20,000 nucleotides of DNA from an uncultured Methanosarcinales archaeon. GTDB taxonomy: Archaea; Nanobdellota; Nanobdellia; Woesearchaeales; BS150m-G63. A program made the position numbers and the translations under genes. Positions 6,672 through 20,000 of this stretch are shown in pieces (positions within the stretch are counted from its first letter, which is position 1; the number at the start of each line of letters is the position of its first letter). The stretch is from assembly GCA_964630685.1 (NCBI GenBank), contig CAZVVW010000005.1, forward strand, positions 51,796-71,795. The letters are read 5' to 3'. Below the pieces are notes generated by a model. It was not told the origin of the DNA. It did no database searches and was given only the letters and a program-made list of their open reading frames with translations.

Positions 6672-7385
6672 ATGAAATTAACTCTAAAGAAAAAACCAAA
6701 AAATCCAATTCTTATAGAGGGTTTTCCTGGTTTTGGTTTGATTGGCACTATTGCCACTGAATATCTTATTGACCATTTAGATTGTGAATTAATCGGAAGG
6801 TATTGGTTTGAAGATCTTCCTGCGACTGTTGCGATTCATGAAGAAAAAATGGTGAATCCTGTGGGTATTTTCTATAACAAAAAAAACAATATTGTGATTA
6901 TTCATTCTATTGCTGGTGCTACAGGTGTTGAATGGAAAGCAGCTGATTTTGTATTTGGTGTTGCTAAAGCGCTCAGGGTTAAAGAAATTATTAGTTTAGA
7001 AGGTGTTGGGGCTACAATTTTAAGTGAAAAAAGCAGTGTATTTTACCATACTAATAAAGAAAAAACAAAGAAAAAGATTGAAAAGATGGGGATTAAACCC
7101 TTGAAAGAAGGAATCATTATGGGGATTACGTCTGCATTGATGGTTATCATTAAAGAAAAAATTCCCATGACTTGCTTTTTTGCTGAAACTCACACTAGTT
7201 TGCCAGATAGCAAAGCCGCAGCTAAAGTTATAGAGGTTTTAGATAAATATTTAGGGTTGAATGTAGACTATAAACCTTTATTAAAACAAGCTGAAAAATT
7301 TGAAGATAAATTAAGAAAATTAATGGAACGGGGAGTTACTGCCAAAAAACAGAAGGATCGTAAATCTTTGAGTTATGTTGGTTAA
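6672..7385 (+). CDS. PAC2 family proteasome assembly chaperone (PbaA/PbaB-like)
   Basis: LIEGFPGFGLIGTIATEYL, ISLEG, PDSKAAAKVIEVL, C-terminal YVG tail. Confidence 0.9.
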   Translation: MKLTLKKKPKNPILIEGFPGFGLIGTIATEYLIDHLDCELIGRYWFEDLPATVAIHEEKMVNPVGIFYNKKNNIVIIHSIAGATGVEWKAADFVFGVAKALRVKEIISLEGVGATILSEKSSVFYHTNKEKTKKKIEKMGIKPLKEGIIMGITSALMVIIKEKIPMTCFFAETHTSLPDSKAAAKVIEVLDKYLGLNVDYKPLLKQAEKFEDKLRKLMERGVTAKKQKDRKSLSYVG

Positions 7386-7490
7386 TTTAATATATTCTTT
7401 AATATATATTTTAGGGTTTATAGTTTTAAATGGTTATTTTTTAAAATATATTCTGTAAAAGATATGATTTAATGTGTTTTTTGTAGTGCT

Positions 7491-7569
7491 TATAACTTTT
7501 AGTCTTTGCTTAAAAGTTTTAATACGTTAAATTGAGCTTAGAGGTTTTAATCTTTTCTTAAATGTTTTA
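7491..7569. repeat. Two copies (7491-7521, 7539-7569) of a 31-bp dyad element; third copy at 8760-8790
   Basis: TATAACTTTTA-GTCTTTGCT-TAAAAGTTTTA and TAGAGGTTTTA-ATCTTTTCT-TAAATGTTTTA. Confidence 0.65.
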
Positions 7570-7877
7570 GTTAGATTAACAAGAAAGATTTTGATTTTTA
7601 AAATCTTAAATCATTATAAAAATTTTTAAATTTTTTATATAATTGCAATATTGAAAATAAATACTACTCTTTTTTGTTGAAAAGTGTAAAGAATTTTTTG
7701 GATATAAAAAAATAAATATTGTTTTTTGAAAAAAGTTGGGTTTTTGATATTTTTTGTTTTTGCTGGTTTTATGATATTTTTAAGTGTGTTGTTTTTTATG
7801 AAAAACCCTTGCGGTTTTTGTGTAAATAAGGCAAAGTAAGTCCATTTAAGCACAAAAATAGGGGTTTTAAGGGAAGA

Positions 7878-7885
7878 TTTATATA
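7878..7885 (+). promoter_or_regulatory. Probable TATA box of xerA
   Basis: TTTATATA preceded by a purine-rich BRE-like GGGAAGA. Confidence 0.55.
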
Positions 7886-7887
7886 TT

Positions 7888-7915
7888 TACGCGTATAAGG
7901 TACATTATACGCGTA
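7888..7915. other. dif: dif-like Xer recombination site (11-6-11)
   Basis: TACGCGTATAA-GGTACA-TTATACGCGTA: perfect 11-bp inverted arms, 6-bp spacer, and the ATAA-N6-TTAT core of known dif sites; 34 bp upstream of xerA ATG. Confidence 0.85.
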
Positions 7916-7949
7916 TTTTTGAGCACAAAAGTCTAAAAAAGAGGTAAAA

Positions 7950-8762
7950 ATGATAGAAAAGCTTGAAACTGAATTGAAATTAAGGGGTTTTAGTAAACAA
8001 ACTTTAAAGGCTTATTTGTATTATAATCGATTATTTCTTAGATATATTCAAAAAACGCCAGAAAGTATTTTAGAAGATGATATAAAAAAATATATAGGTC
8101 ATCTTTTGACTGATGAAAACTATTCTGCTTCTTCGGTTAGTTTAGTAAAAGCTGCGTTGAAATTTTTTTATGATGAAGTGCTGAAAAAAGGGGTTGTTAA
8201 TTTCAAGACTCCTAAAATCGATAAAAAGTTACCAATTGTGCTTTCTAAAGAAGAAGTGAGGAAATTGATAGATTCTGCAGGAACTGAGAAAAGTAAATTG
8301 ATTATCAAAATGTTGTATTCTTCTGGATTGAGGTTAAGTGAATGTATTAACTTGAAAAAAGGGGATTTAGAGTTTAGTGAGAAAATTGCGTGGGTTCGTG
8401 GCGGAAAAGGTAAAAAAGATAGAATTGTTATTTTTTCTGAGAATTTGATCGAAGAATTGAAAAAATACCTTGAAAACAAGGGTTTTGAGTCGGAATATGT
8501 GTTTTCAGGGCCAAATGGATCTATTAGTGCAAGGAATGTACAAGATATAGTAAAAAACGCTAGCAAACGTGCTGGAATCACTAAAAACGTTAGTCCCCAC
8601 ACTTTAAGACATTGTTTTGCAACACATTTACTTGAATCAGGAGTAGATATTAGAAAGATACAGGAATTACTTGGACACTCTAATCTTCAAACAACCCAGA
8701 TATATACGAGAGTTTCTAAAGAAGAATTGAAGAAGGTAAAAAGCCCTTTGGATGATATCTAA
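7950..8762 (+). CDS. xerA: XerA-type tyrosine recombinase
   Basis: N-terminal SAM-like domain; catalytic R (SGLRLSE), K (GGKGKKDR), HxxR (HTLRH), H (LLGHS), Y (TQIYT); GAGGT SD. Confidence 0.93.
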   Translation: MIEKLETELKLRGFSKQTLKAYLYYNRLFLRYIQKTPESILEDDIKKYIGHLLTDENYSASSVSLVKAALKFFYDEVLKKGVVNFKTPKIDKKLPIVLSKEEVRKLIDSAGTEKSKLIIKMLYSSGLRLSECINLKKGDLEFSEKIAWVRGGKGKKDRIVIFSENLIEELKKYLENKGFESEYVFSGPNGSISARNVQDIVKNASKRAGITKNVSPHTLRHCFATHLLESGVDIRKIQELLGHSNLQTTQIYTRVSKEELKKVKSPLDDI

Positions 8763-8790
8763 AACCTTTAAACTTTGCTTAAAAGTTTTA
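8760..8790. repeat. Third copy of the 31-bp dyad element, overlapping the xerA stop codon
   Basis: TAAAACCTTTA-AACTTTGCT-TAAAAGTTTTA; CTTTGCTTAAAAGTTTTAA at 8773-8791 is identical to 7504-7522. Confidence 0.75.
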
Positions 8791-8895
8791 AGCGTGTAAT
8801 TGTTAAGGGTGTTTTTATGTTTATTATATTCTTTAAACTATATATTGTTAAATAATCTTTTTAAAATAATTAATTTATACTATTTGTTGAGATAT

Positions 8896-9459
8896 CTATT
8901 TTTGAGATACTATCTTCTTAGAAACTGATTCATTGATTTTTACAATGTTCTTTTTTGCTTGGAGCTCTCTGAATTGAGGGCTTAATCTTAAGTAAACTTC
9001 TTTATCCAGGTATTTTTTGTAGATAGGTATTCCTTTTTCAATAAGATTTGTAATATAGTTTTGAACTAAAGGGGGTGTTATACACAAAAACTTAGCGATT
9101 TTTGAGTAAGTAACTGGCTCTTGTTCTTGCTCTAATGTATAAAAGGTTAGAAAAATTTCTTGTTCTTTTCTCGTCAGAGGGGTTATTTTAAACTTAATTT
9201 TTTTGTGTTTTGATGTTTTTTTTCCGAGATGCTGAATAAACATCATCACTTCATCTAATTTCTCATTTAATTTATCTATTTTAGAATCTAATTCATATAA
9301 ATATTCATAATTAGAATGGATTTCATTTGTATTTTCGTTTATAGCGTCGAGGTGTTCTTCAAATTCGTCTTTGATTTTATCAAAAGTTGCCTTTAATTTT
9401 TTGTTTAATCGTTCTTTTTCTCGACGAGAAACTTGATTTTTTAAATTTTTGTTTACCAT
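8896..9459 (-). CDS. Uncharacterised N-terminal coiled-coil + C-terminal winged-helix DNA-binding protein
   Basis: Heptad-rich N-half; PLTRKEQEIFLTFY...VTYSKIAKFLCITPPLVQNYITNLIEKGIPIYKKY resembles wHTH with wing; ATG 9459 preferred over TTG 9477. Confidence 0.75.
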   Translation of the reverse strand: MVNKNLKNQVSRREKERLNKKLKATFDKIKDEFEEHLDAINENTNEIHSNYEYLYELDSKIDKLNEKLDEVMMFIQHLGKKTSKHKKIKFKITPLTRKEQEIFLTFYTLEQEQEPVTYSKIAKFLCITPPLVQNYITNLIEKGIPIYKKYLDKEVYLRLSPQFRELQAKKNIVKINESVSKKIVSQK

Positions 9460-9505
9460 ATCCCAACAAGACAACAAAGAAAGAGGAGATTTAAATAGTT
9501 TTCTA

Positions 9506-10156
9506 CTAAACTCTTTTAATTAATTTACTGAGGTATAATTTTTCGTTTCCTTGCCTTACAACATCGACGTGATCTGATTCTTCTATCTCTGTAAGAATAC
9601 GGTAAAAAGAACTCTTTGAGCATAATCCTTGTTCATCTACAACTATTTCTCTTAATTTTAAAGAGGAAATATTTTCATATTTCTGGATTAATGAAAAAAC
9701 TAGGTTTTTTACATACCCTTTAGAATTTCTAGTTATTTTTTGAATTAATTTTTCTTTAAATGATGGCTTTGGAGGGTTCCCTATTTGTTCTATTTTTGAG
9801 TGTAATTCATGGATTTTGTCGTGCATAGGCTGATGTGAATCCATGATAGTGTTAATCTGTTGATCAAAGCTCTTTATCCTGTTTAATAATTCTTTGAATG
9901 CATAATGATCGTCGAGAATTTCCCTTATTTCATGTTTTGATAAAGGAGATGTCGATATTTTTTCATGAAGATGTTGAAGAAGCCTTTGTTGGTTTGCCAT
10001 TATTTTTTCTTGTTCTTGATGTTTAAGATGAAAATAATTGATCCATTCAAAAATATTGGATGTATGGGATTTTACATTATTAAAAGAATCTGCCAATGTA
10101 GAATGGAGCGAATGAATATCTTCTTTTGTTGCGTATTTCTTTTTAGACCAAAACAT
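9506..10156 (-). CDS. Uncharacterised His-rich coiled-coil + C-terminal winged-helix protein
   Basis: Helical N-half; KLREIVVDEQGLCSKSSFYRILTEIEESDHVDVVRQGNEKLY resembles wHTH (S..SFYR recognition helix plus beta wing). Confidence 0.75.
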   Translation of the reverse strand: MFWSKKKYATKEDIHSLHSTLADSFNNVKSHTSNIFEWINYFHLKHQEQEKIMANQQRLLQHLHEKISTSPLSKHEIREILDDHYAFKELLNRIKSFDQQINTIMDSHQPMHDKIHELHSKIEQIGNPPKPSFKEKLIQKITRNSKGYVKNLVFSLIQKYENISSLKLREIVVDEQGLCSKSSFYRILTEIEESDHVDVVRQGNEKLYLSKLIKRV

Positions 10157-10181
10157 TATTTTTGTAATAAAAGCATTCTCA

Positions 10182-10189
10182 TATATAAA
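10182..10189 (-). promoter_or_regulatory. Probable TATA box of the two-gene wHTH operon (near-leaderless transcript)
   Basis: Minus-strand TTTATATA about 25 bp upstream of ATG 10156; its BRE position overlaps the first TGGGAA box. Confidence 0.6.
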
Positions 10190-10193
10190 TTTT

Positions 10194-10432
10194 TGGGAAT
10201 GTTTTGGGAATATGTTGGGAAAAATGTGGGAATGTTTTGGGCTTTGAAGTTGCTAAAAATGATGTGTTGAGGGCGTATTGGTTTTTTTGATGGGAATGGA
10301 GTGGGAACGTATTGGGAATAGTTTGGGAATAGGGTGGGAATGTTTTGGGAATAGAAATATTGGGGTTTATAGAGGAGAAAATAGGCTGGGAATGTGGGAA
10401 TCTTTGAGAATAAAGTGGGAATTGGAGGGGAA
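10194..10432 (+). repeat. Helically phased array of TGGGAA boxes (iteron/centromere-like)
   Basis: Exact TGGGAA starts at 10194, 10205, 10216, 10227, 10291, 10302, 10313, 10324, 10335, 10346, 10387, 10395, 10416; in-phase variants at 10238, 10405, 10427; 5-nt spacers vary. Confidence 0.9.
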
Positions 10433-10576
10433 TTAAGAAGTTTATAGGTATAGTGAGGGTAAAAGTTATATATCAGTGATGTTCTTGAATGCTGTAAATG
10501 AATATGGCATAAATATGGTGATGATATCCATTATTTAAAAAAATTTAAGTTAAAAGTGAGAGTTTATGGAGGGGAG

Positions 10577-10620
10577 TATAAGGTAGATATAAGGTAAATA
10601 TGAGGCAGATATAACATATA
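10577..10620 (+). repeat. Degenerate 11-bp tandem repeat (TATAAGGTAGA) x3-4
   Basis: TATAAGGTAGA / TATAAGGTAAA / TATGAGGCAGA / TATAACATATA. Confidence 0.65.
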
Positions 10621-10621
10621 T

Positions 10622-11272
10622 ATGACAAATATAAGATCTAAAGGGGAATTAGCAGTGTTTTTAGCTAGTTTAAAGGGGTTTAAGAAGCCAAAAGTGAGAC
10701 TTGAACAATATATTATGGATAGTGAAATAGGTGCTCAAGTGCTTTGGGAAGCCTATATGAAGGGAGATATAGAGGGAAAAGTGATAGCTGACCTTGGTTG
10801 TGGTACTGGTTTATTGGGTATTGGGGCGTTATTATTGGGTGCTAAGAAGGTTTTTCTCGTCGATATTGATGATTCTGCTATTGAAGTGGCTAAAACTAAC
10901 CTTGCTAAAGTCAAAAGTGAGGGTTATGGGAATTATATGATTGGTGAATCCATCTTTTTAATGTGTGGTGTGGCAGGGTTTGATGAGTCTGTTGATGTTA
11001 TTATACAAAATCCTCCTTTTGGAGTCAAAGTGAGGGGGGCTGATAGGGCATTTCTTAAGAAATCCATGAGTGTTGCAGATGTTGTGTATAGTTTTCACAA
11101 AAGTGAGAGTAATGAGTTCATTAAAAAGTGTTCTAATGATGGAGGGTTTAGTGTTGAAGGTTATTGGGAATTTGATTATCCAATAAAAGCTATGCATGAA
11201 TTCCATACTCGGAGAATTTATAGGTTTAGGGTTGGGTGCTGGCGATTGGTAAGAAAAAGAGTGAAGTGTTGA
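10622..11272 (+). CDS. METTL5-like (COG2263) N6-adenine RNA methyltransferase
   Basis: LEQY, DLGCGTG SAM motif, VDID, NPPFG, VVYSFH, EFHTRR. Confidence 0.9.
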
Positions 11273-11328
11273 GTGGAGTGTTGAGTGGAGTGTTGAGTGG
11301 AGTGTTGAGTGGAGTGTTGAGTGAAGTG
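11259..11328 (+). repeat. 12-bp tandem repeat (GAGTGGAGTGTT) about 5.8 copies, spanning the MTase stop codon
   Basis: Four perfect internal copies at 11271-11318 flanked by GAGTGAAGTG variants. Confidence 0.92.
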
Positions 11329-12936: not shown

Positions 12937-13671
12937 ATGAATGAAGAAACCAATAAAGCTGATAAAAAAAATAATGTTGATGTTCCAAAACATATTGCTG
13001 TGATATTGGATGGTAATAGAAGGTATGCCAAACGGCTTATGCTACAGCCGTGGAAAGGTCATGAGGTTGGGACTAAAAATTTGGAGAGGTTGCTTGGGTG
13101 GTGTAAAGAGTTAGGGGTTAAAGAGTTAACACTTTATGCGTTTTCTATGCAAAATTTTAATCGTCCTAAAGAAGAATTTGATTTTCTGATGAAAATATTT
13201 AATGATGAGTTTGATAGATTGCTAAATGAGGAGAGTCTGCATAAAGATAAAGTAAAAGTCAGAGTTATTGGTAGGATTGAGCACTTTCCTGCTGAATTAT
13301 ATGAAAAAATGAAAAAAGTGATGGAAATGACTAAAGATTATGATAATTATATTGTTAATTTTGCAATGGCTTATGGTGGAAGGGAAGAAATAGTTGATGC
13401 TGTTAAGGTGATTGCAAAAAAAGTTGTGTCTGGTGAAATTGATGTTGAGGATATCAATCAAGAAAGTTTTGGTGATGCACTCTATATGAATGATGCGCCT
13501 GAATTAATTATAAGAACTGGTGGTGAAATGAGGACTTCTAACTTTTTACCTTGGCAGAGCACTTATTCTGAATGGTTTTTTGTTAAAGAGATGTGGCCAG
13601 AATTTACTAAAGATAATTTGATTGCTGTTTTTGAAAAATTTAATAAAAGACACAGAAGATTTGGTAAGTAA
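12937..13671 (+). CDS. uppS: cis-prenyltransferase (polyprenyl diphosphate synthase)
   Basis: PKHIAVILDGNRRYA, LYAFSMQNFNRP, YGGREEI, IRTGGEMRTSNFLPWQ, C-terminal RRFGK. Confidence 0.96.
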   Translation: MNEETNKADKKNNVDVPKHIAVILDGNRRYAKRLMLQPWKGHEVGTKNLERLLGWCKELGVKELTLYAFSMQNFNRPKEEFDFLMKIFNDEFDRLLNEESLHKDKVKVRVIGRIEHFPAELYEKMKKVMEMTKDYDNYIVNFAMAYGGREEIVDAVKVIAKKVVSGEIDVEDINQESFGDALYMNDAPELIIRTGGEMRTSNFLPWQSTYSEWFFVKEMWPEFTKDNLIAVFEKFNKRHRRFGK

Positions 13672-13766
13672 CCGAATCCTCAGTAATTTTTTAATAAAAA
13701 TCAAAGAAGATTTGGTAAGTAACCGAATCCTCAGTAATTTTTTAATAAAAATCAAAGAAGATTTGG
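13654..13766 (+). repeat. 51-bp exact tandem duplication (about 2.2 copies) spanning the uppS stop codon
   Basis: Unit AGAAGATTTGGTAAGTAACCGAATCCTCAGTAATTTTTTAATAAAAATCAA at 13654 and 13705; partial at 13756. Confidence 0.92.
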
Positions 13767-13858
13767 AAAATAATAGTTTATTGATTGATTTTTGGATGGT
13801 TTTTAGTTAATTTTTTATATTTCTTAATTAATAGATATAATGAGGTTAACTATATATT

Positions 13859-19535: not shown

Positions 19536-20000
19536 TTAGGTTATTATTAAGTATTTTTTTTGTCTCAGATTTATTGTTTTTATTCCTTGTTTTTTAAGTT
19601 TTTCCTTTAATTCCTTATCCTGAGTCGCTACAATATAATCCCCTTTTACTGCAAAATCAAGTATTATGTCGTCTACATAAGGTATTTTAGATAATGGTTT
19701 TGTTCTATTTATATGCTTTTCTGTTTTTATAGTCTTTATAGGGTATTTTTTCAATAATGAGAGGGCTAATTTCGCCGCTGAACTATGTTTCCCTTTTTGA
19801 GTTTTTATGATATTTTTCACTTCAGATATGCATTTATCTAAAATATATAAGCTATAATTAGGTAAAATTCGTTCAAATTCTGAAAAAATATCTACATTAA
19901 ATCTATCTGGAATTAATAAAAAATTGGTGTCGATTAGTACTTTTAATTGATTTGATTGATTTGATTGATTTGATTGATTTGATTGATTTGATTGATTTGA
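19536..20000 (-). CDS. PIN-domain ribonuclease (Fcf1/Utp24-like); start lies beyond the window
   Basis: Frame stays open upstream of the track's GTG 19820: (SNQ)6-LKVLIDTNFLLIPDRFNVDIFSEF...VDDIIL...VATQDKELK. Confidence 0.9.
   Translation of the reverse strand, partial: SNQSNQSNQSNQSNQSNQLKVLIDTNFLLIPDRFNVDIFSEFERILPNYSLYILDKCISEVKNIIKTQKGKHSSAAKLALSLLKKYPIKTIKTEKHINRTKPLSKIPYVDDIILDFAVKGDYIVATQDKELKEKLKKQGIKTINLRQKKYLIIT
19947..20000 (+). repeat. 9-bp perfect tandem repeat (TTGATTTGA) x6, running off the window end
   Basis: Six exact units; in frame with the PIN gene on the minus strand, encoding SNQ. Confidence 0.95.

Follow-up and report, generated by a model that had tools for sequence, protein, structure and literature searches.

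The window, by which we mean the whole 20,000-nt stretch of DNA analysed here, comprises positions 51,796 to 71,795 of contig C5 in the Woesearchaeales genome G000 (G000:C5:51796-71795; 936,502 bp, 31% GC, 35 contigs, 96.6% complete). This work concerns two open reading frames (ORFs) in it, ORF193 and ORF216, which encode small proteins with predicted winged helices, and an array of short boxes repeated every 11 bp beside ORF216. The gene order around them is PAC2, 564 bp of non-coding DNA, xerA, ORF193, ORF216, 465 bp of non-coding DNA and METTL5, and the block is flanked by PAC2 at 6672-7385 (plus strand) and by a METTL5-like methyltransferase gene at 10622-11272 (plus strand), both recognised with Pfam. 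An earlier reading of this DNA made from its letters (the sequence-only reading) had placed the two largest non-coding stretches of the window between these genes. The ORF map agreed, with inter-ORF gaps of 564 bp (7386-7949) and 465 bp (10157-10621) and only 187 bp for the third largest. No Rfam family was matched in 7000-11000. The same reading had called the two winged-helix genes convergent, which was not correct: both lie in tandem on the minus strand, where they probably form an operon, and the only convergent genes here are ORF193 and xerA. The features on the ORF216 side of the block are as follows.

8896..9459, minus strand: ORF193, 187 aa from the ATG at 9459, or 193 aa from the TTG at 9477
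9506..10156, minus strand: ORF216, 216 aa
10157..10621, no strand: right non-coding stretch, 465 bp from ORF216 to METTL5, with the whole array inside
10182..10189, minus strand: putative ORF216 promoter box TTTATATA, read from the sequence, 25 nt before the ATG
10194..10243, plus strand: array cluster 1, four TGGGAA boxes and one TGGGCT box in an exact 11-bp step, reading TTCCCA on the ORF216 sense strand
10291..10351, plus strand: array cluster 2, six TGGGAA boxes in an exact 11-bp step
10362..10385, plus strand: spacer motif GGGGTTTATAGAGGAGAAAATAGG, between clusters 2 and 3
10387..10432, plus strand: array cluster 3, TGGGAA at 10387, 10395 and 10416, with degenerate TGAGAA at 10405 and GGGGAA at 10427

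The phased array beside ORF216

TGGGAA was matched 25 times in the window, and 13 of these matches, all on the plus strand, fell within about 230 bp (10194-10421). They formed clusters of 4, 6 and 3 with spacings of 11,11,11, of 11,11,11,11,11 and of 8,21, and 8 of the 12 spacings were exactly 11 bp. Degenerate boxes carried on the phase of the array, and Tandem Repeats Finder also reported a period of 11. In the whole genome TGGGAA occurred 534 times on both strands, and clusters of at least four copies were found only in this array. Moreover, all eight TCCCA-N6-TCCCA pairs of the 936-kb genome lay inside it. These results indicated that the array noticed in the sequence-only reading is real and non-random and is the sole site of its kind in the genome.

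The first array box started 4 nt upstream of the ORF216 TTTATATA box, over the position of the transcription factor B recognition element (BRE), and the same layout was seen in orthologous loci. The distance of 25 nt between the TTTATATA box and the ATG suggests that the ORF216 mRNA is leaderless.

The conservation of the locus was followed in 33 loci, each from a different Woesearchaeales genome (the window, L023-L032, L034, L035 and L059-L078; locus L024 represents genome G002). ORF193 adjoined ORF216 in 33/33 loci, and a cluster of at least six [TGA]TC[CT]CA boxes stood beside ORF216 in 32/33. The sole arrayless locus, L078, is one in which the contig ends 46 nt past ORF216. Only 2 other such clusters were found in roughly 390 kb. 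The 32 arrays contained 394 boxes, and the array has 10-21 boxes over 250-400 bp. Among the 337 spacings between same-strand neighbours, 133 were exactly 11 bp and 169 were multiples of 11. The extended consensus of the box over the 32 arrays was 9 bp long, A-Y-A-[T/G]-T-C-C-C-A. Within the genus (three genomes, including G002), the GGGA cores were invariant and the spacers drifted. A near-palindrome of the type TTTATCG(A/T)CGA was frequent between the array clusters of relatives and was also present in the unit of an ORF216 paralogue described below. The strict spacer pattern TATCGNCGA was found within 100 bp of the array in only 6/32 loci, so the conservation of the spacer motif is loose.

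The conserved neighbours of the module were PAC2, a recombinase gene, METTL5, RpoL and AMMECR1. The protein identities to the window were 94% in G001 of the same genus, 68% in G002 and 27-49% in other genera and families. The ORF216 profile matched 211/401 genomes of the order (at least 90% complete), mostly with one copy per clade, and 166/301 sampled genomes of the phylum. Full-length strong matches came only from the same order, and those in other orders of the class were weaker and mostly N-terminal. Both families are large, with 233 and 249 database proteins at E<=1e-3. Their named members are labelled hypothetical or generically and all come from Woesearchaeota or Nanoarchaeota, where they place the genome. 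The gene pair and the array had been proposed to belong together, and the pair in 33/33 loci and the array in 32/33 bear this out; with its synteny and gradual divergence, the core module is no sporadic island. ORF193, ORF216 and the array form a conserved, single-copy module of the chromosome, which is most likely specific to the Woesearchaeales lineage and inherited vertically. In L080 (2096-2180; genome G488, of another order), what looked like a 12-bp array was rejected as a coding 12-nt repeat, which gives TRVQ peptide repeats in the linker of a distant ORF216 homologue.

An array at a promoter could be an ordinary cooperative operator, with ORF216 and ORF193 acting as local regulators of their own operon and of the divergent METTL5-rpoL-AMMECR1 genes and having no structural role. 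We regard this explanation as quite possible, though on the doubtful side. It is favoured by the 29 tandem loci of 33 in which the array abuts the ORF216 promoter and the proximal box overlaps its BRE/TATA, and by the presence of METTL5 beyond the array in 25/33 loci. However, 10 to 21 boxes over 250-400 bp are far above the need of an operator. Furthermore, ORF216 alone was inverted in 4/33 loci (G016, G019, G034 and G143), where its promoter faces ORF193 and has no boxes. The array stayed in place in all four, with up to 17 boxes, partly arranged as TGGGAC-N-GTCCCA palindromes, and in G019 it touched neither the ORF216 promoter nor METTL5. In addition, the array is the only site of its kind in the genome, which would leave a pure autoregulator without any output. 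The retention of the array in inverted loci, the number of its boxes and the lack of another genomic site argue that it is more than the operator of ORF216.

The winged-helix proteins and the boxes they may read

AlphaFold2 predicted for ORF216 (pLDDT, the predicted local distance difference test, 80) helices at residues 11-69, 74-107, 109-125 and 133-160, followed by a winged helix at 162-210, which holds the invariant helix C-S-K-S-S-F-Y-R. For ORF193 (pLDDT 86), one helix at 3-79, a winged helix at 97-159 and two short C-terminal helices were predicted. The description of both proteins as coiled coil plus winged helix agreed with these models, in which long helices precede a C-terminal winged helix. 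The predicted fold of ORF216, the putative binder, is accordingly a winged helix and not a ribbon-helix-helix.

ORF193 matched Pfam Fe_dep_repress over residues 101-156 with 27.4 bits against a cut-off of 26, a borderline match at the level of the domain only. Its best Foldseek matches were MepR, FabT and DtxR (E 1e-3 to 7e-3), and PDB sequences gave matches of the GerE/Lrp helix-turn-helix type at E 1e-3 or weaker. ORF193 thus carries a MarR/DtxR-like winged helix, on a borderline, domain-level match. Its likeness to MarR/DtxR repressors would suit the operator explanation, but the long coiled coils of both proteins are unusual for simple repressors.

The fold of ORF216 matched generic winged helices, namely cullin WHB, MecI, PadR, Rpa2 WH, MarR, TubR and Cdt1, of which MecI, PadR, MarR and TubR bind DNA. 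TubR chains took ranks 23, 31 and 39 of the Foldseek list with E 0.07-0.1, as one of many weak matches. The fold searches with Foldseek and VIA-wide returned only generic winged-helix matches, and no match to SegB, WhiP, RepA or the Orc1 winged helix, which the sequence-only reading had put forward, was outstanding; these searches barely covered the N-terminal helices. Searches of PDB sequences with ORF216 gave coiled-coil noise only, NCBIfam and PHROGs gave nothing above their cut-offs for either protein, and ESM Atlas contained only unnamed Woesearchaeota/Nanobdellota clusters for them. Since no fold match stands out, neither protein can be assigned to a characterised family. The literature searched contained no description of these proteins or arrays, and the conserved cis-element with its putative binder is previously undescribed in it.

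Between ORF193 and ORF216, BLASTP was not significant, and a profile-profile alignment covered 33 N-terminal columns only, with 74% probability. The predicted heterodimer scored 0.12 against a mark of 0.32, which is no evidence either way. An identity as ScpA/ScpB was rejected: there was no SMC_ScpA or SMC_ScpB Pfam match, and the genome encodes a genuine ScpA on contig C9, ScpB on C3 and also SMC. Iteron-type plasmid initiators such as RepA and pi have two tandem winged-helix domains and iterons of 17-22 bp. Here one winged helix per protein was predicted, the repeat unit is 11 bp, and no Rep family was matched in Pfam, NCBIfam or PHROGs.

One ORF216 paralogue was found in the genome, a protein of 150 aa on contig C10 (E 3e-11; L002 ORF 1438-1890, minus strand). 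The DNA upstream of it (1891-2173) contained GTCTCA/TGAGAC boxes with spacings of 22, 11 and 66, and GTCTCA boxes were likewise present upstream of the paralogue orthologues in G022, G036 and G032. The two clades differ in both the recognition helix of the winged helix and the box. In the ORF216 clade (clade A, 28 loci), the helix is SKS[ST]FYR[LI] and TCCCA outnumbered TCTCA in 25/27 loci with clustered boxes. In the paralogue clade (clade B, 5/5 loci), the helix is S[KR]A[ST]FYRY and there were 32 TCTCA boxes versus 1 TCCCA box. This co-variation fits the binding of each protein to the array at its own gene, and ORF216 very probably binds the TCCCA boxes.

The paralogue arrays enclosed canonical Orc1 boxes of the origin recognition box (ORB) type, such as GTTCCATCGGAAACAAAGGGG, two of them in the unit on C10, and the same unit recurred in G022, G036, G007, G032 and G073. 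In G007 the boxes and ORBs lay by the paralogue gene, with an ORB pair at the 3' end of the gene, and in the closed genome G073 an ORB pair was located about 110 bp upstream of it. Of the three strict ORB matches in G000, two were at the paralogue unit and the third was on the orc1 contig, where a second box that fits a relaxed pattern lies close to it. A second ORB-like pair was seen on C19 at about 920-1040, in direct orientation, about 80 bp apart and 10 kb from orc1/cdc6. After the second of these C19 boxes comes GTCGTCTATAAA, a sequence similar to the array spacer motif.

The enclosed ORBs, as well as the iteron-like direct repeats beside a winged-helix gene, speak for the locus as a second, Orc1-independent origin, in which the 11-bp boxes would serve as iterons and ORF216 or ORF193 as the initiator, like WhiP at Sulfolobus oriC3. 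The C-terminal winged helix of Cdt1 was also among the ORF216 matches, with a Z of 7.7 that was not outstanding. We consider such an origin most improbable. ORB-like boxes were found in only 1/33 ORF216 loci, and orc1 has its own inverted ORBs elsewhere. In the five genomes G019, G085, G143, G380 and G357, this orc1 site was 18-36% of the genome away from the locus, neither adjacent nor antipodal. Moreover, there was no GC-skew switch at the locus on contig C5, Pfam found no linked helicase, primase or Rep gene in the window, and the spacers between the clusters were not notably A/T-rich for a genome of 31% GC. An origin of the Orc1 type was rejected on the scarcity of ORB-like boxes and the distance of orc1, and the origin role that the sequence-only reading had offered was not supported. 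Its suggestion to place the locus by cumulative GC skew led no further: the skew showed no sign change on C5, twenty 20-kb samples around closed G019 tracked gene strand only, and with no replichore signal in this lineage the method is uninformative. The unit on C10, with two ORBs inside a GTCTCA array, resembles an archaeal oriC, whereas the ORF216 locus of the window has neither ORBs nor an orc1 gene. As noted earlier from the letters, Pfam detected no ParA/SegA or Orc1 gene in the window; Orc1/Cdc6 was found on contig C19.

A further motif, AAGTGAGRG, lies on the far side of the array.

10554..10562, plus strand: AAGTGAGAG box, 60 nt before the METTL5 start codon

AAGTGAGRG was present within 700 bp of the array in 30/32 loci, and its orientation was always away from the array. 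In G000 there were only 14 copies, four of them at 10554-11101 of the window, and some copies lay in the METTL5 coding sequence. Several loci had 4-7 non-coding copies, in some genomes in tandem, each after a TATA-like stretch. In another order of the class, the reverse complement CTCTCACTTT stood between the two homologous genes. Our guess is that ORF193 may be the protein that reads AAGTGAGRG; as well as an ORF193 operator, the motif could be a promoter element or a polar site.

Several side observations touch this motif. It often stood on both outer sides of the block of recombinase, ORF193, ORF216 and array, pointing outward (window 10554-11101; L025, L060, L065, L068, L075 and others). 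In L080 (G488), the two genes converge, and three CTCTCACTTT boxes lie between them. In G019 (L030 7080-7400), the non-coding DNA beyond the array is a long stretch of phased A-tracts, GGC(A)5-7, followed by AAGTGAGRG boxes, and this stretch is likely to be intrinsically bent.

xerA, the dif-like site and the PAC2-ORF193 interval

The other side of the block contains a recombinase gene and its surroundings.

7386..7949, no strand: left non-coding stretch (ORF map and sequence), with the xerA promoter, the dif-like site and repeat copies inside
7491..7522, plus strand: direct repeat copy 1, core CTTTGCTTAAAAGTTTTAA, from a repeat search, with a weaker copy at 7539-7570
7878..7885, plus strand: likely xerA TATA box TTTATATA, read from the sequence
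7888..7915, no strand: dif-like site TACGCGTATAA-GGTACA-TTATACGCGTA, a perfect 11-6-11 palindrome between the xerA TATA box and start codon
7950..8762, plus strand: xerA, an archaeal Xer-type tyrosine recombinase of 270 aa
8760..8791, plus strand: third copy of the direct repeat, with 88% identity to copy 1, directly behind the xerA stop codon

The xerA product matched Pfam Phage_integrase at 2.6e-45 and passed the NCBIfam model NF040815 (recomb_XerA_Arch) with 281.5 bits against a cut-off of 220, and its best solved relative was P. abyssi XerA (4A8E, 1e-56). The palindrome at 7888-7915 is a single-copy inverted repeat with 11-bp arms and a 6-bp spacer in non-coding DNA. It was the sole match in the 936,502-bp genome, even when up to 3 mismatches were allowed, and it covers the expected transcription start of xerA. 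The sequence-only reading was therefore right to pair xerA with a dif-like site. The 11-6-11 architecture corresponds to that of dif in PMC2958812, which places dif away from xerA in Thermococcales, and PMC11840125 describes a dif-like site upstream of a xerA operon in haloarchaea. The likeness to archaeal Xer/dif thus lies in the XerA model and the unique 11-6-11 site, and the difference in the overlap of the site with the xerA promoter.

Direct copies of (A/G)AGCACAAAA, at 7848-7857 and 7921-7930, stand on either side of the xerA promoter with its dif-like site; they are kept in G001 and G002 and are possible accessory sequences. A second Xer-like paralogue is encoded on contig C6, with 42% identity to XerA and 216.7 bits, just under the XerA cut-off. 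The region upstream of this gene (L089 1825-2637) was seen to hold a palindrome, AGATTAAACATA ... TATGTTTAATCT, at L089 1700-1780. With this palindrome, each Xer-like gene of the genome carries its own candidate site in the promoter region.

A tyrosine-recombinase match was found on the ORF193 side in 24/33 loci, in 22 of them within 1.1 kb. Fifteen of the 24 matches were at least 43% identical to the XerA of the window and look like its orthologues, and the other nine, at 29-39%, belonged to a second tyrosine-recombinase clade. In G004 a serine recombinase (L025 4295-5053) stood beside ORF193 instead. The PAC2-ORF193 interval varied from 1.3 to 5 kb, and because the serine recombinase of G004 occupies the tyrosine-recombinase position, the interval looks like a hot spot of recombinases or integration. 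The core CGTATAA-N6-TTATACG was present beside the recombinase in 6/33 loci (the window, G001, G002, G020, G101 and G245), with varying spacers and outer arms, and G018 had a dif-like variant with a 7-nt spacer. A physical coupling of the module to dimer resolution, proposed from the sequence, is supported only in part: a recombinase lies beside ORF193 in 24/33 loci, but it is XerA-like in only 15 of them, and the dif-like site was found in only 6/33. In short, xerA with its own dif-like operator is a frequent but not obligatory neighbour.

This variable interval raises the question of whether the whole block is a remnant or resident part of a mobile element, that is, a recombinase and a partition or iteron cassette captured at a PAC2-METTL5 hot spot. 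The exchange of XerA-like genes (15), the second clade (9) and the serine recombinase of G004 in an interval of 1.3 to 5 kb fits such an origin, and a layout of array plus binder is typical of plasmid par and rep loci. In addition, a direct repeat stands both before and after xerA, and its exact 14-mer core has just these two copies in the genome; motifs like G[AC]TTAAA[AT]GTTTTA flank recombinase genes in relatives. Nevertheless, we judge this explanation improbable. In 33/33 loci from many families of the order, the core keeps an unchanged position between the same housekeeping genes, and its identities decrease from 94% to 68% and to 27-49%, as vertical descent predicts. Furthermore, neither protein had a meaningful PHROGs match, and the variability was confined to the recombinase side. 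In public metagenome contigs from 4 runs, no joint pointing to excision of the xerA cassette was found, and the contigs broke inside the array. One X6 record joined 7028 to 9932 with 8 extra letters, at a likeness of 90% that may reflect another organism.

Further repeats were observed elsewhere in the window. A second 11-bp periodic repeat, TATAAGGTAGA, with 3.5 copies at 10577-10625, lies just before and over the METTL5 start codon, and its conservation in G001 was not obvious. Tandem Repeats Finder also reported a 12-bp repeat, GAGTGGAGTGTT x5.8 at 11259-11328, which runs across the METTL5 stop (11272) and beyond, a 51-bp unit x2.6 at 13639-13773 after a prenyltransferase gene, and a 9-bp repeat, TTTGATTGA x6.6 at 19942-20000, at the window end.

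A possible chromosomal landmark

As in partition systems, phased short direct repeats stand here in blocks upstream of the gene of their putative binder. TubR is a winged-helix protein, and its centromere consists of direct repeats in blocks upstream of the binder gene, as does the array of ORF216. In the account of tubC in PMC6009700, the direct-repeat blocks are always upstream of tubR, and the ring- or filament-like TubR-tubC complex represses the promoter and recruits TubZ. The ORF216 locus differs in that it has no TubZ or TubY neighbour, and the structural match to TubR is no better than that to dozens of winged helices. Moreover, ORF216 has about 130 residues of long N-terminal helices, compared with the short N-terminal dimerisation helix of some TubR proteins described there (PMC6009700).

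The parC site of plasmid R1 is the second close parallel. According to PMC2241845, parC consists of 11-bp iterons that surround the promoter in two groups of five, each of them bound by one ParR dimer, and it is both operator and segregation site. The array shares with it the 11-bp direct repeats, the separate clusters of about five and the position at the promoter of the binder operon. However, ParR has a ribbon-helix-helix fold, and the actin-like motor ParM comes after it, whereas the proteins here combine a coiled coil with a winged helix, no motor gene is linked, the site is chromosomal and there are up to three clusters. Pfam found neither an actin-like or tubulin-like motor domain nor a ParA/SegA ATPase in the window, and such an ATPase was also missing from the tested genes of the conserved neighbourhood. 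Membership in ParMRC and TubZRC therefore fails for want of a motor gene, and for ParR also on the predicted fold. By this comparison, the layout is closest to that of plasmid centromeres which double as operators.

A chromosomal parallel is offered by Thermococcus kodakarensis, where a TrmBL2 filament on intergenic DNA around dif is described as an SMC boundary for which XerA and dif are not needed (PMC11840125). The likeness would lie in a protein on the DNA of the dif region that acts as a landmark there, and G000 encodes SMC, ScpA and ScpB. On the other hand, ORF216 and ORF193 do not belong to the TrmB family by Pfam, TrmBL2 binds with low sequence specificity whereas the box here is precise and phased, and the array is 2.3 kb from the dif-like site of the window, with dif adjacent in only 6/33 loci.

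A chromosome-organising role appears plausible. The interpretation that we tentatively prefer, at slightly less than an even chance, is that ORF216 on its phased array would form a dedicated, autoregulated nucleoprotein complex at a single landmark site of the chromosome. ORF216 would bind the 9-bp boxes, which are repeated at 11-bp intervals and grouped into two or three clusters next to its own gene, and the bound protein would coat one face of about 250-400 bp of DNA to build a large nucleoprotein complex. The complex may set the level of its own proteins through the promoter-proximal box, because this box overlaps the BRE/TATA of the presumably leaderless ORF216-ORF193 operon. The probable functional product would be the complex itself on one chromosomal site, since there is no second site in the genome and the array survives inversion of ORF216. 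It could then be a landmark that acts in cis as a centromere, boundary or roadblock, resembling ParR/parC or TubR/tubC in build except that no motor gene is linked. ORF193, as the constant neighbour and a second winged-helix protein, probably reads another conserved motif.

Several observations weigh against this interpretation. The co-variation of helix and box comes from one comparison between two clades and thus amounts to one evolutionary event. The top matches of the ORF216 winged helix were as much protein-binding (cullin WHB, Z 10.2; Rpa2 WH, Z 8.8) as DNA-binding, with none outstanding. No NTPase motor or other partner gene was conserved beside the module, by Pfam in the window and among the genes tested in the 33 loci. 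In addition, the array lies upstream of METTL5-rpoL-AMMECR1 in 25/33 loci and could regulate these genes. Finally, the distance between the locus and orc1 varied from 18 to 36% of the genome in five genomes, and the locus therefore marks no fixed replication landmark.

A wider and more speculative proposal takes in the paralogue as well. In it, a private coiled-coil/winged-helix family of Woesearchaeales would polymerise on 11-bp-phased arrays that mark chromosomal landmarks, with the GTCTCA paralogue around ORBs and the TCCCA protein, together with ORF193, at a fixed site that is often near xerA/dif. As motor-less centromeres, or as loading sites or roadblocks for SMC, these sites might then organise the small chromosome and ensure its segregation. 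As a whole we hold this proposal to be unlikely.

To our knowledge, the organisation, segregation and resolution of DPANN chromosomes are essentially unknown, and many of these archaea have no recognisable ParA/SegAB. The locus is a concrete and readily testable handle on this problem: its two proteins are small and soluble, and its 250-bp DNA site has no counterpart in the genome and is conserved across the order. The paralogous unit wrapped around Orc1 boxes is a further handle. If the complex is structural, it would represent a new class of archaeal chromosomal cis-element and adaptor. If it is only an operator, the locus would still give the binding code of two uncharacterised regulator families present in hundreds of genomes.

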